A stretch of 64,000 nt of DNA from Candidatus Omnitrophota bacterium (GCA_043812035.1 JBDRMR010000001.1:58-64057), one strand, 5' to 3'; shown: positions 3,314 to 49,893, counted from the stretch's first letter. The notes: a model not told the origin generated them from the letters alone. A program made the numbers and translations.

Positions 3314-3390
3314 GATAGCGTTTAGTATTTTCTATACGCTAAACGCTATACGCTCTACGCTAATAAATACACGCTCTACGCTATACGCTA
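3314..3390. repeat. heptamer-based palindromic intergenic element (family B, copy 1)
   Basis: gatagcgtttagta...tatacgctaaacgctatacgctctacgc...acgctctacgctatacgcta. Inverted arms are built of TAGCGTW and ACGCTMT 7-mers. Fills the trpC-trpF spacer. Confidence 0.7.
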
Positions 3391-3393
3391 ACT

Positions 3394-4176
3394 TTACCAA
3401 CCCATAATCTCTTTAATTTTCGCTTTGATGTCCGCAGACTCCACAATAGCCTCGCCGATCAAAACCGCGCTCACTCCCAAAACCTTCAGAAATAATATGT
3501 CCTGGTAAGACTTAATCCCGCTTTCCACCACCACGATTTTATCCCTGGGAATCAGAGGATAAAGTCTCTGCGTGGTTTCAAAGTCCACCGCCAGACTATG
3601 GAGGTTGCGGTTATTTATGCCGATAAGCCCAGCCTTTGCCTTCAAGGCCTTTTTAATATCCTTCTCGGTATTAACCTCTACCAGACAATCCAAATTCAGA
3701 CTATTGGCCAAACCCAGGAAACTGCTTAAGGTTTCCTGATTAAGCAGCTCGGCGATTAAAAGTACGGCGTCGCAGCCGAAAGCGCGCGCTTCGTAAATCT
3801 GATAGGGGTCTATGATGAAGTCTTTCCTTAAAACCGGCAGATTCGCCGTTTTCTTAATCTGCTGGGCGTAATTGATATCGCCTAAAAAATAATCCTCGCA
3901 GGTCACAACCGAAATCGCCTGCGCTCCGGATTCTTTGTATATTCTGGCTATCTCGCAGGGATTAAAATCCTGCCGTATAACGCCGCGGCTGGGAGAAGCT
4001 TTTTTAGCCTCGGCAATAAGAGAAATTGAGCCGGATTTATTTATGCTTTTAATAAACGAAAGCGCGGGATTCGAGGCCTCTATTTTTGCCAGTAAATTCT
4101 CCCGGGGAAATTCTTTTACCCTCTGGGCAAGTCTTTCTTTTTTCCTGACAACAATCTGTTTAAGCGCATCCTCCAT
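3394..4176 (-). CDS. trpC: indole-3-glycerol phosphate synthase
   Basis: 260 aa. IAEAKKASPSRGVI motif region typical of IGPS. Confidence 0.9.
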   Translation of the reverse strand: MEDALKQIVVRKKERLAQRVKEFPRENLLAKIEASNPALSFIKSINKSGSISLIAEAKKASPSRGVIRQDFNPCEIARIYKESGAQAISVVTCEDYFLGDINYAQQIKKTANLPVLRKDFIIDPYQIYEARAFGCDAVLLIAELLNQETLSSFLGLANSLNLDCLVEVNTEKDIKKALKAKAGLIGINNRNLHSLAVDFETTQRLYPLIPRDKIVVVESGIKSYQDILFLKVLGVSAVLIGEAIVESADIKAKIKEIMGW

Positions 4177-4198
4177 ATAAAAACCTCTCTCTGCCGAC

Positions 4199-5284
4199 CT
4201 ATGGTAAGTTGGAAAATCGGCGCAGTTCGTCCAGTTTCCTCATAGCGCTGCCGGAATCTATGCAATCGGAGGCAACTTTGATTCCTTCACCCAGATTCTT
4301 AGCCCTGTCTCCCAGATAAAGCCCGGCAGCGGCGTTGAGCAATACGATATTCAGCTTTGGCCCTCTATCTTTGCCGGATAAAATATCCGTTAAAATTCGG
4401 GCATTGTCCTGCGGCGTGCCTCCGGTTAAATCTCCGGGCTTAGCCGGTTCAATGCCGAGGCTCTGAGGATTTATTACATAATTCTTGATTTCTCCTCCCT
4501 CGGTCAATTCGTAAATCCTGGTATCTCCGATTGTAGAAATCTCATCCATGCCTAAATTACTCCCGGCATCCAATCCGTATACGACCATCGCCCTGCTCAG
4601 ATTCAGGACCTTTAACACCCTGACCAATCTATGCGTCAATCTTTCGCTGTTAACCCCCAATATCTGGACCGTCTTGATTCCGTTTTTATAGGCGGAAGAA
4701 AAAGCGGGGTTGACCAAAGGACCGAGGATGTTGAATACCGTCGGTGTTCGGATTTGCCGGCGAACTTTCTGGACGTTCTTAAACGCTCCGTGATAAAGCG
4801 GGGCGAAGAAAAAGGCGATATCTATTTCTGCCAGGCAGCGGCTGGCAATTTCTGCCTCCATTGCAATATTAACGCCGAGTTCTTCAAGCACATCCGCGCT
4901 GCCGCATTTAGAGGTTATGGCGCGGTTGCCGTGTTTGGCTACAGCCATACCCGAAGCCGATAGGATAAACATACTCGTTGTGGATACGTTAAACGTCTCT
5001 ATGGCTCCTCCGCCGGTGCCGCAGGTATCCGCCAAAACCTTATCCTTTTTTATGTCCTTTGTTTCGACTTTGCCGGCGATTTGCCTGATTGCGAAGGCAA
5101 AGCTGGCAATCTCCTCGGTTGTCGGACCCTTTGCCTGAAGCGCGACAAGAAATGCAGCTTTTTCAGAATCAGGCGCCTCTTTCGACATAATAACGCTCAT
5201 TGCCGAGGCTGCCTCCTCCATAGACAAATCAATCTTGCGGTTAAGCTTATCGATGTACGGATTTAAATCAGCCTTTTTTTCCAT
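4199..5284 (-). CDS. trpD: anthranilate phosphoribosyltransferase
   Basis: 361 aa. Glycine-rich CGTGGGAIETFNVST motif of TrpD. Confidence 0.9.
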   Translation of the reverse strand: MEKKADLNPYIDKLNRKIDLSMEEAASAMSVIMSKEAPDSEKAAFLVALQAKGPTTEEIASFAFAIRQIAGKVETKDIKKDKVLADTCGTGGGAIETFNVSTTSMFILSASGMAVAKHGNRAITSKCGSADVLEELGVNIAMEAEIASRCLAEIDIAFFFAPLYHGAFKNVQKVRRQIRTPTVFNILGPLVNPAFSSAYKNGIKTVQILGVNSERLTHRLVRVLKVLNLSRAMVVYGLDAGSNLGMDEISTIGDTRIYELTEGGEIKNYVINPQSLGIEPAKPGDLTGGTPQDNARILTDILSGKDRGPKLNIVLLNAAAGLYLGDRAKNLGEGIKVASDCIDSGSAMRKLDELRRFSNLP

Positions 5285-5843
5285 AGCCCAAGAAATTCCT
5301 TAAAATGTCTTTCCCCGTATTTGTCAGTATCGACTCCGGATGAAACTGCACTCCCCAGACCGGGTAATCCTTATATTTAAGTCCCATTATCTCATCGTCC
5401 TTAGTCCAGGCGACCACCTCCAATTCCGATGTTAAGTTGCGGCCGCTTACAATCAAAGAATGATACCGGGTAGCTTCAAAGGGGTTGGGAATGCCTTTAA
5501 ATATTCCTTTTTGGTTATGATAAATCATCGAGGTTTTCCCGTGCATTAGCCTGTGCGCCTGGACAATCTTTGCTCCGTATACAAACCCCAAACACTGGTG
5601 CCCCAGGCATACGCCCAGTATGGGAACCTTGCCGGCGAATTCCTTAATGACCTGACAGGATATTCCGGCGTCCTCAGGCCGGCCCGGCCCGGGGGAAACC
5701 ACGATTCTGTCGGGTTTCAACCTTTTTATCCCGGCAATATTAATTTTATCGTTGCGCAAGACCTTCAGATTCTGACCCAATTCCCCTAAATATTGCACAA
5801 GATTATAGGTAAACGAATCGTAATTATCGATAACCAATATCAC
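5268..5843 (-). CDS. trpG: anthranilate synthase component II / glutamine amidotransferase (TrpG or PabA type)
   Basis: 191 aa class I GATase (MILVIDNYDSFTYNLVQYL; catalytic GVCLGHQ). A 17-nt overlap with trpD suggests coupling. Confidence 0.85.
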   Translation of the reverse strand: MILVIDNYDSFTYNLVQYLGELGQNLKVLRNDKINIAGIKRLKPDRIVVSPGPGRPEDAGISCQVIKEFAGKVPILGVCLGHQCLGFVYGAKIVQAHRLMHGKTSMIYHNQKGIFKGIPNPFEATRYHSLIVSGRNLTSELEVVAWTKDDEIMGLKYKDYPVWGVQFHPESILTNTGKDILRNFLGYGKKG

Positions 5844-5868
5844 TTTCCGCTCCTTAGTAACGCAGTTC

Positions 5869-48322: not shown

Positions 48323-48422
48323 CCTTTACCTCCTAAAATAAAAAATTTTTTTAAAATCGGCTTTTCTAATATTTGTATTTATTCCACAGGTCTATGTTTT
48401 GAAGACTAATCCGGGATTAATA

Positions 48423-48453
48423 ATTATATATCATATAAAAGGTTATGGGTCAA
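48423..48453 (-). promoter_or_regulatory. candidate sigma70 promoter for the OmpA-like lipoprotein operon (-35 TTGACC, -10 TATATA/TATAAT)
   Basis: AT-rich 143-nt spacer. On the minus strand it reads ttgacc-N17-tatata with an overlapping tataat. SD AGGAGG lies at the gene start. Confidence 0.35.
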
Positions 48454-48465
48454 GAAAAATGTAGG

Positions 48466-49743
48466 TTACCTGCGAATCAGAATGGTCTGGTCCCGGCTTG
48501 AGCCTACCGACACCATAAATATACGGGTAGAGACCAAATCCTCAAGCCCTCTTATATAGTTTTTGGCACTTTTAGGCAAGTTTTTATATTGGCGAATCTT
48601 TTGCGTGTCTTGATTCCAGCCGGAAAATTCCTTCCACACACAAGCGCCTTTGCCGATAACTTCGGGGTCGTGGGGATAATTCTTAAAAATCTTGCCTTTG
48701 TATCTATAAGCGACGCAAACCTTGATTTTCTTCAAATCGTCCAGAACATCGAGTTTCATAACTGCCAATTCTGAAACTCCGTTCAATTTCGCTGCCTCAG
48801 CTACCATAACCGAATCAAACCATCCGCAACGCCGCGGCCGTCCGGTAGTGGCGCCGAATTCGTTGCCTTTAGTGCGGATGTATTCGCCAAATTTAGGAGG
48901 AAATTCGGTTGGGAACGGGCCTTGCCCCACGCGAGTGGTATAACTTTTAGCCACCCCGATTACTCTATCTATGTCGAGAGGGGAGATACCGCTGCCTGAG
49001 CAGGTCCCGCCGGCAATGGTCGAAGAAGAGGTTACGTAAGGATATGTCCCGAAATCAATATCCAAAAACGCCCCCTGGGCGCCTTCAAAAAGCAGAGATT
49101 TTTTACCGGCGATTGCCCGGTTTATTAGTTCGGAAGTATTGCACAAGTAAGGCCGAAGAAACCTGGCGTGGCTCAGATATTGCCGGTAAATCCGGTTAAA
49201 CGAAAATCCCGGATGGCCGTAAACCTTGTTGAAGACCGCATTTTTTTCTTTAAGGTTATCTTTGAATTTATTTTTAAAAACGCGCGGCCGGCACAAATCA
49301 ATCATCCTTATCCCGCAGCGGTTAATCTTGTCGGAGTAACAGGGGCCTATTCCTCTGCCGGTCGTCCCTATCTTCTGGGCTCTCTTTCCCTCTCTCAACT
49401 TATCCAGGATCCTGTGGTAAGGAAAAATTACGTGGCAAAGATGAGATACCTTTAGCCTGCTGCTTGTGTCTATGCCTCTTTTGTTGAGTTCGTTTATTTC
49501 CCCTATGAGAATTTCGGGATCAACCACTACGCCGTTGCCGATTACGCAGATTTTATCTTCGTGCAAGATTCCGGAGGGAATAAGATGAAAAATAAACTCT
49601 TCTCCGTCAACCACCACCGTATGCCCGGCGTTGTTGCCCCCCTGAAACCGGATAATGTATTCGCACTTGCGGGAAAGAATGTCGATTACCTTGCCCTTGC
49701 CTTCATCCCCCCATTGTGTTCCGACTATGACTGTGTTTGACAT
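48466..49743 (-). CDS. purA: adenylosuccinate synthetase
   Basis: 425 aa. [15 protein letters not shown]-loop. Confidence 0.95.
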
Positions 49744-49748
49744 ATTGG

Positions 49749-49893
49749 TTAGCGCAGAGCGTATAGCGTTTAGCGTACAAGAAAATCGCCTTCGGCGATA
49801 ACTATCAGCTGCGATTTTCAGTGGTTAGGAAAGTGTTCTATACTTTCCTATACCATAAAAAACTCTACGCTGTACGCTATCCGCTATACGCTA
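49749..49893. repeat. heptamer-based palindromic intergenic element (family B, copy 6), composite with inserted hairpins (including a gcc-UUCG-ggc tetraloop on the plus strand); followed by TTTTTT
   Basis: ttagcgcagagcgtatagcgtttagcgta...atcgccttcggcgat...ggaaagtgttctatactttcc...ctctacgctgtacgctatccgctatacgcta, then tttttta. Confidence 0.7.

Follow-up and report, generated by a model that had tools for sequence, protein, structure and literature searches.

Six intergenic loci in a 64,000-nt chromosome segment of Candidatus Omnitrophota (GCA_043812035.1, JBDRMR010000001.1:58-64057; hereafter the window) are taken here, with a probability of about one half, to be copies of a dispersed, non-coding intercistronic hairpin element built from 7-nt units and similar to repetitive extragenic palindromic (REP) sequences and miniature inverted-repeat transposable elements, or MITEs; four of the copies are intact, one is a half element and one is decayed or nested. 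The element fills the few bases between the stop codon of one gene and the start codon of the next in tightly packed co-directional genes, is polar relative to these genes and often donates the upstream stop codon. Comparison with related contigs shows that some orthologous junctions hold the element while others do not, and that it can nest in itself.

Six copies of a four-heptad element

The two-unit pattern TAGCGNNTAGCG, with at most one mismatch allowed, matches the window 36 times, against 4.45 ± 2.04 times in dinucleotide-preserving shuffles, none of which (0 of 100) attained this number. All but two of the matches (34 of 36) fall within the six loci, and Tandem Repeats Finder (TRF) independently reports period-7 arrays there. 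All six lie at the positions given in an earlier reading of the same DNA that was made from the sequence alone (the sequence-only reading). The heptad unit is NAGCGKW, with an invariant AGCG core, T or, less often, G or C at its first position, and K and W at positions 6 and 7; parsing of the window copies gives exactly four units in each intact arm. All six copies have the same orientation when read in gene sense, and in the window every copy lies in a spacer between co-directional minus-strand genes and never within a gene, as had been claimed. The further claim that all six are palindromes holds for copies 3–6, which are true imperfect hairpins composed of a four-unit arm, a loop (12, 32, 20 and 88 nt, respectively) and an inverted four-unit arm, but not for copy 2, which has one arm and a loop, or for copy 1, which is decayed or nested.

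Copy 3 (26318..26385; like all copies on the minus strand) occupies the spacer between fhs and FTCD_C and is intact, with four units in its 5′ arm (26385-26358), the loop TAGGAAATACTA and four units in its 3′ arm (26345-26318). The fhs gene stops at the element's first TAG, and the FTCD_C ATG follows 7 nt after the end of the element; a locus from a JGI metagenome (L240) is identical. Copy 4 (29486..29585), in the trmD>rplS spacer, is also intact, with a 32-nt loop and a degenerate extra unit (29486-29497). Its first two units encode the last codons and the stop of trmD (D-S-V-TAG), and a Shine–Dalgarno (SD) motif (AGGAGG) and the rplS ATG (29465) are located downstream. The stop codons of fhs and trmD thus lie inside the element, in line with the reported overlap of copies 3 and 4 with upstream gene ends. 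Beyond copy 4, CGCTATGTGTTCC on the rplS side (29486-29497) mirrors GGAAC..ATAGCG of the trmD coding end (29586-29600); the palindrome thus reaches 5 nt into host sequence, either by coincidence or perhaps as a relic of template switching.

Copy 5 (46178..46253; DUF4912>GH57 spacer; intact 4 + 4 units with a 20-nt loop) starts 4 nt past a TAA stop codon and stops 5 nt short of the GH57 ATG, and copy 6 (49750..49893; HMGL>purA spacer; 4 + 4 units with an 88-nt loop) likewise starts 4 nt past a TAA stop codon, with 6 nt between its end and the purA ATG. Both therefore abut the next start codon and leave no room for an SD, as the sequence-only reading had it, but the lack of an SD at element junctions is not special, because only 30 of the 63 window genes have an SD-like motif. 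Within the loop of copy 6 lies a module of ~85 nt (49778..49865, minus strand) that is unrelated to the heptad element and contains two small hairpins; the hairpin at 49799-49785 (ATCGCC-GAAG-GGCGAT, then TTTCTTG) resembles a sense-strand intrinsic terminator, and a homologue of the module is found at a different junction in a relative (L123, ~13450-13560).

The half element, copy 2 (7138..7174; prmC>aroA spacer), consists of the loop GAAATAC and a four-unit 3′ arm (7165-7138); it begins directly after the prmC stop and is followed 6 nt past its end by the aroA ATG. Copy 1 (3316..3390; trpC>trpF spacer) comprises, in gene sense, a three-unit arm (3390-3370), a 7-nt spacer, a four-unit arm (3362-3335; TAGCGTA GAGCGTA TAGCGTT TAGCGTA), the loop TAGAAAATACTA and a lone 3′ unit (3322-3316).

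A defined sequence family beyond the window

Two scans of other assemblies returned at least 120 loci each. The genome scan, for which each species was represented by one genome and the four-unit pattern was loose, is permissive, including many perfect microsatellites from all phyla; the metagenome scan used the exact 19-mer TAGCGTAGAGCGTATAGCG, and L240, the copy-3 locus, is among its listed matches. The motif is thus not peculiar to the window, and its periodicity persists when copies are aligned by their arms only: in 35 paired copies, mean column identity is 91% and AGCG/CGCT is invariant at every 7th column, which bears out the earlier suggestion of a genuine heptad-built repeat family. 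The sense consensus of a full copy is TAGCGTA TAGCGTA GAGCGTA TAGCG(G/T)A TAG, then a short, usually A-rich loop, then CTA TACGCTA AACGCTA TCCGCTA AACGCTA. The variable positions differ between the arms (TA, TA, G-TA, (G/T)A in one versus TA, AA, TC, AA in the other). The 7-nt periodicity is therefore a real, internal feature of a conserved ~67-nt element (about 60–70 nt).

Array size is narrowly distributed. Among the matches listed (n ~302), 43 arrays have two units, 89 have three, 161 have four, three have five and seven have more than five; because arrays stop so sharply at four units, free slippage is disfavored, and the arrays form a defined sequence family rather than a free microsatellite. 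Near-identical degenerate four-unit arrays are present, among the matches listed, in metagenome-assembled genomes (MAGs) that carry the labels Omnitrophota, Atribacterota (with a single-cell genome among them), Elusimicrobia, Planctomycetota and others; since the phylum labels of short MAG contigs can err, the occurrences in Omnitrophota and Atribacterota are the firm cases. At least 40 convergent array pairs were found with the loose pattern of the genome scan, and only four viral-contig stretches match. The family takes two forms, the paired form seen in the window and a single four-unit module; single modules are embedded in long intergenic regions beside other heptad modules, in loci that resemble the Atribacterota-labelled ones. 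Literature searches for the repeat strings yielded no papers, and a search for Omnitrophota together with repeats yielded nothing relevant.

Several observations on these loci stand apart from the paired element. Loci L131-L250 include long intergenic mosaics of differing ~3–4-unit heptad modules (for example, L143 10290-10450, L176 6460-6700 and L184 5900-6250), with units such as ATCTCGT, AGTCGTT, GAGTAAT and CCAGTTA; these mosaics, too, are in loci resembling Atribacterota-labelled ones. In 925 kb of loci, TRF reports 597 period-7 arrays, compared with 147 for period 8 and 38 for period 6. GTAG-initial, REP-like G+C-rich hairpins (GTAGGGGC...GCCCCTAC) adjoin heptad modules in the mosaics (L133, L143 10560-10720, L165 and L184 6040-6090). 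In an Omnitrophota MAG (L116), two near-identical paired copies (3496-3565 and 5554-5623) lie within one open reading frame (ORF) of >8 kb, and one frame of the element stays open.

Polarity and overlap with gene ends

In paired copies with co-directional flanks, the arm containing the 19-mer is 5′ in gene sense in 28 cases and 3′ in four, and GAGCG is confined to the 5′ arm in 23 copies and to the 3′ arm in three (two-sided binomial p ~2e-5 and ~9e-5, respectively; some loci may be orthologous, so that the cases are not fully independent). Single modules display no clear polarity. In the 29 sense-oriented paired copies, the upstream stop codon is a TAG of the element at offset 0 in nine and at +7 in seven, the upstream stop is TAG in 22, and the next start lies 0–27 nt past the element end (median, 11 nt). 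Several Omnitrophota TrmD proteins terminate in SV*, the translation of T AGC GTA TAG. Within the window, transcription and replication are not separable as correlates of this polarity, since all genes are on one strand; plus-strand GC skew is negative across its whole length (1-64000).

Presence and absence at orthologous junctions

The relatives compared have PurA proteins 89% and about 75% identical, and TrmD proteins 74–83% identical, to those of the window. The sequence-only reading had proposed orthologous spacers as a test of mobility, and presence/absence polymorphism is seen at five junctions. The HMGL>purA spacer, filled by the element in the window, is a 5-nt spacer in L123 and L125 (TAA AAATT ATG or TAA AAAAT ATG), and in the closest relative (L121) it holds a hairpin of 8-nt units (TAGCGTTW). 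At fhs>FTCD_C, L251 reads TTT TAA T ATG, whereas the window reads TTT TAG CG...CGC TAA AAATTT ATG; these empty and filled sites are compatible with insertion at the TA of the stop codon, although they are not proof of it. The trmD and rplS genes overlap in L252, whereas in the window the element lies between Leu-Leu codons and the SD and trims the variable TrmD tail to DSV*. Conversely, L121 bears elements at tig>clpP and clpP>aminotransferase, where the genes of the window overlap or leave only a tiny gap.

Nesting and loop sequences point in the same direction. In L177 (14184-14330), a complete second element lies within the loop of a first, whereas what is apparently the same gene end in a related contig (L232 11316-11390) has one element only; copy 1 looks like a decayed version of such nesting. 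The loop GAAATAC is common to copies 1–3 and, among the other loci examined, occurs only in L240, the copy-3 locus itself; two L121 spacers have an 8-nt-unit variant in common, including the odd unit TAGGGTTA. Taken together, the differences between orthologues, the nesting and the genome-specific loops indicate dispersal and would fit copy-and-paste movement or gene conversion among copies, whereas slippage occurring independently at every site would hardly account for them.

The same relatives carry analogous hairpins with ~4 units per arm but other units: L121 2881-2955, 3562-3661, 4799-4913, 7751-7826 and 11517-11607, L123 4510-4585 and L252 787-862. Their units are TAGCGAG (7 nt), GCGTTATA/GGGTTATA (8 nt), TGGTTAAT (8 nt) and GTTCCATAAA (10 nt). 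In the clpP>aminotransferase hairpin, both arms have changed from GCG to GGG between L121 and L123. A second dispersed repeat, a double hairpin with the core GTGAGGCCACRACTTATG...CATAAGTYGTAWGGCCGAACTTAYCCTTGACAT...ATGTCAAGG, is found in the window at 2443-2677 and 9382-9517, upstream of rpsO and rpmE, and related copies occupy other junctions in the relatives (L123 2877-3025 and L125 6963-7161).

Folding and terminator predictions

As RNA, copies 3–6 fold with −34.6 to −64.8 kcal/mol (z −4.2 to −8.1, both strands), and as single-stranded DNA, with DNA parameters, with −20.5 to −36.4 kcal/mol. Copies 1 and 2 fold no better as RNA than shuffled sequences (z −0.95 and −2.2 for copy 1). The stem is a row of 5-bp G+C blocks (UAGCG/CGCUA) parted by conserved mismatches; when the arms are paired in the loop-anchored register, standard pairs make up 78.4% of cells, against 18–46% in slid registers. 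Searches of Rfam (at gathering thresholds and at E ≤ 1) gave no relevant match, only miRNA-like noise far below gathering scores.

On the sense strand, stems are followed by A-runs, and a consensus terminator scan calls none of the elements, only the unrelated hairpin nested in copy 6; on these two results, a terminator role on the sense strand is rejected. The sequence-only reading had also pointed to T6 after copies 5 and 6 on the plus strand, suggestive of terminators on that strand. The T6 runs are present, at these two copies of the six, but the terminator is not supported: T6 is the complement of the native A-rich stop–start spacer, which is present in relatives that have no element (TAA AAATT ATG). 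A TRAP-type site, considered for copy 1 in the trp operon, is ruled out by a period of 7 rather than 5–6 and by the AGCG core.

Candidate binding or mobilizing proteins

The ORFs between distant inverted arrays in 1.7 Mb of loci are housekeeping genes (MreC, Mur ligase, AspRS, CoaE, L9 and others). A Pfam scan of 150 array-flanking ORFs revealed no recurrent family and no transposase family among the 25 families listed (those with the most member matches), and none of these flanking ORFs is a recurrent gene for a ribbon-helix-helix (RHH), HutP or other small nucleic-acid-binding protein; the window has no such gene, nor one for a REP-associated tyrosine transposase (RAYT; Y1 transposase). A search for IS200 TnpA-like proteins gave no matches in 5728 ORFs of the loci, although the query was approximate and the test is therefore weak.

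Genomic setting

The window is a compact segment of a bacterial chromosome (G+C ~47%) of Candidatus Omnitrophota, and all close homologues of its PurA and TrmD proteins are from Omnitrophota. The minus strand carries all 63 long ORFs. Intergenic DNA amounts to 1740 nt (2.7%) of the 64,000 nt, of which the six element-bearing spacers make up 553 nt (about a third); they are six of the 18 window spacers of at least 25 nt. Housekeeping functions make up the gene content (trp, aroA, prmC, polA, fhs, folD-type, trmD, rplS, rpsO, rpmE, purA and glycogen genes), which rules out a phage origin, and no tRNA or tmRNA was found in a search of the window. By gene content, trpC-trpF, trmD-rplS and fhs-FTCD_C-folD look like conserved operons, with three of the copies inside them.

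The purA>ompA spacer (window 48323-48465; L121 9102-9433; L123 11273-11368; L125 11276-11404) has a sigma-70-like promoter (TTGACC, 17 nt, TATAAT) that is kept in all relatives; in L121 this spacer has an extra terminator-like hairpin and ~190 nt of added sequence.

Proposed function and alternative explanations

If the six loci are copies of a dispersed element, such copies would arrive through insertion or gene conversion from other copies and would persist only where nothing is disrupted. The element would be co-transcribed with the flanking genes and fold, in mRNA or single-stranded DNA, to an interrupted ~31-bp stem, at whose foot the upstream stop codon and the downstream start codon would come to lie. 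Its effect, if it has one, would likely be that of an intercistronic stem-loop. Hairpin-gated translational coupling in other systems works by ribosome melting of the stem. Here, ribosomes that terminate within the first units would open the lower stem and free the region just 5′ of the next AUG, so that translational coupling would be gated; protection of the upstream mRNA from 3′ exonucleases, or cleavage by a double-strand-specific RNase, would be equally plausible consequences of the modelled fold. Sense transcription would not be terminated by the element, and the heptad modules are probably recognized by some protein that binds or moves them.

Several results weigh against this reading. 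The arms do not covary (score 0.033 against 0.049 in shuffles, with 495 of 500 shuffles at least equal), and at five stem positions most copies have a mismatch; selection for an RNA stem is unproven for these two reasons. Sense and antisense RNAs fold alike (−34.3 versus −33.9 kcal/mol, p = 0.59), and RNA pairing therefore does not explain the polarity. With regard to mobility, no autonomous copy or transposase was found in the 1.7 Mb of loci, and a target-site duplication is not demonstrable: a duplicated TA could not be told apart because TA also begins every unit, and the outer TA of the element is conserved only ~70–80%. The same 28–31-nt module is conserved in MAGs labelled as several phyla, which could reflect a conserved binding partner. 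Finally, the DUF4912>GH57 spacer has a different unit-hairpin in each of three relatives and could be a site that needs some hairpin rather than one of repeated selfish insertion.

Some of these results would be expected if the four-heptad module were an array bound by a host protein, with its hairpin potential secondary, the leading alternative, which we regard as unlikely but far from negligible. The target could be RNA, as for ring-shaped antiterminators of the HutP type, which bind NAG-N4 repeats (the HutP site is UAG-N4, three times); binding to the 5′ arm would then compete with stem formation, and polarity relative to genes would suit such an RNA-level binder. It could also be DNA, as at the contiguous heptad operators or centromeres to which RHH dimers bind. 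An invariant 5-nt core with two variable positions per heptad and no covariation between arms fits a bound array, as do the recurrence of the module in MAGs labelled as several phyla and the Atribacterota-labelled loci, which carry it singly, without an inverted partner, beside other four-unit heptad modules. The sharp limit of four units has a parallel in the operators/parS sites of the pSM19035 omega protein (ParB, RHH), which needs at least four contiguous WATCACW heptads, direct or inverted (PMC9499535). The iteron-like protein-binding array of the sequence-only reading thus has a precedent but is neither demonstrated nor dismissed by these data. Set against it are the lack of a candidate binder gene in the window or recurrently beside the arrays, the position of the sites between stop and start codons in housekeeping operons and not at promoters, and presence/absence at orthologous sites, which argues against site-specific regulation; moreover, the same spacers in close relatives have hairpins of 7-, 8- and 10-nt units, and many different binders would be required. 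A speculative extension, also unlikely in our judgement, makes the module one word of a modular recognition code of families of four 7–10-nt units in Omnitrophota, Atribacterota and neighbouring uncultured phyla. Each family would have its own oligomeric nucleic-acid binder or a mobilizing enzyme of a kind not yet described, and the inverted TAGCGKW pair would act as an intercistronic switch gated by protein, or form the two ends of a new kind of mobile element, instead of being a passive hairpin.

That the arrays are ordinary heptanucleotide repeats, made in place by slippage and rendered palindromic through template switching with no dispersal, seems doubtful. Such repeats are common enough: according to the summary of Mrazek 2007 in PMC4679880, heptanucleotide repeats are the commonest class of long simple sequence repeats (LSSRs) in many bacteria and are often intergenic. 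Inverted pairs are known from the GGGAATC arrays of Xanthomonas, and many genomes contain perfect (TAGCGAA)n and (TAGCGAG)n arrays that reach ~11 or more units and have short inverted partners. The two-arm change in the clpP>aminotransferase hairpin and the 5 nt of trmD coding sequence (GGAAC) mirrored at the 3′ end of copy 4 would also fit. However, unit number in the K/W family is limited to four, the units are imperfect with position-specific variants common to unrelated loci and different genomes, and the two arms have different conserved consensuses, all of which disfavors the slippage origin offered in the sequence-only reading; loop variants common to several loci of one genome, and one copy nested within another, add to this. 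Very improbable is a role as transcription terminators, whether bidirectional or stopping antisense transcripts that enter operons. The stems are strong on both strands, at copies 5 and 6 a T6 run comes after the stem on the plus (antisense) strand, and T-runs follow a few metagenome copies too (for example, L146 and L229). Against this, the sense-strand stem leads into A-runs and not U-runs, several copies are inside apparently conserved operons (by gene content), the T6 runs belong to native spacer and concern two of six copies, and the scan calls only the hairpin nested in copy 6.

If the dispersed-element reading, which we prefer, is true, one kind of element accounts for a sizeable portion of what little intergenic DNA the compact genomes of several uncultured phyla have. 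It would rewrite gene ends, through donated stops and trimmed C-termini, and put a strong stem between cistrons; gene calling in MAGs and operon prediction would be affected, and the element would be a natural strain-level marker. It would also raise the mechanistic question of which factor reads, or moves, a module of strictly four heptads whose mismatches are retained.

Comparison with known systems

REP sequences and their composites (bacterial interspersed mosaic elements and REPINs) are likewise short, imperfect, high-copy extragenic palindromes, located between co-directional operon genes, co-transcribed (as is proposed here), mosaic or nested and without coding capacity. As an extragenic palindrome, the present family has six intergenic copies in 64 kb, four of them with significant folds, and at least 120 loci in other assemblies. 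It differs from REP in that its arms consist of four 7-nt quasi-repeats and its stem is longer (~31 bp) and regularly interrupted. GTAG, although present at the TAGCGTA|GAGCG junction in 30 of 35 aligned copies, lies inside the 5′ arm (columns 12-15) and not at the head, and several genome-scan copies (L098, L099 and L116) lack it; there is no RAYT gene in the window, and the host phyla differ. Bacterial MITEs (Correia/NEMIS, RUP and BOX) share small size, non-autonomy, terminal inverted repeats, presence/absence polymorphism, nesting and subfamilies peculiar to single genomes; their insertion at gene ends can likewise change C-termini and the structure of the mRNA. The arms (28–31 nt) and total length (60–150 nt) of the present element are of this type. 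It differs from MITEs in having no demonstrable target-site duplication and, in 1.7 Mb of loci, no parent insertion sequence with the same ends, and in its internally periodic arms and its strong orientation bias relative to flanking genes. It is not a clustered regularly interspaced short palindromic repeat (CRISPR) array, since its units are contiguous, without spacers, and number at most four per arm.

The pSM19035 omega/ParB sites are also made of contiguous units of 7 bp, in each of which variable flanks surround a conserved core of 5 bp; the units are both direct and inverted, with a functional minimum of four, and the present module likewise has four contiguous heptads. However, the plasmid sites are few per replicon, lie at the promoters of a partition and regulation module beside the gene of the binding protein, and have neither a loop between opposed arrays nor a link to stop and start codons.

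Although the 7-nt periodicity was earlier judged to be unlike that of classical repeats, and the family is indeed unlike REP, enterobacterial repetitive intergenic consensus (ERIC) and CRISPR repeats in sequence, heptanucleotide precedents exist. The TAACTGA repeats of Beggiatoaceae often lie just upstream of SD-less start codons (PMC4679880), and in Xanthomonas the GGGAATC repeats are frequently arranged as convergent inverted pairs that can fold into stem-loops (PMC4692102); neither has an established function. Like these and the short tandemly repeated repetitive (STRR) sequences of cyanobacteria, the present units are tandem, head-to-tail, intergenic and phylogenetically scattered. Those repeats, however, are variable-length arrays of near-identical units, whereas in the present family four units is the commonest size among the listed arrays and near-identical units in variable number are not what is found: it is fixed at four, with position-specific degeneracy, and is a dispersed, polar inverted pair that overlaps stop codons, with Omnitrophota and Atribacterota as its hosts. 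The heptanucleotide repeats of cyanobacteria, Xanthomonas and Beggiatoaceae are its closest precedents; if the element is what we take it to be, they may be manifestations of the same process, for which a defined, polar and dispersed version would offer a better experimental handle.

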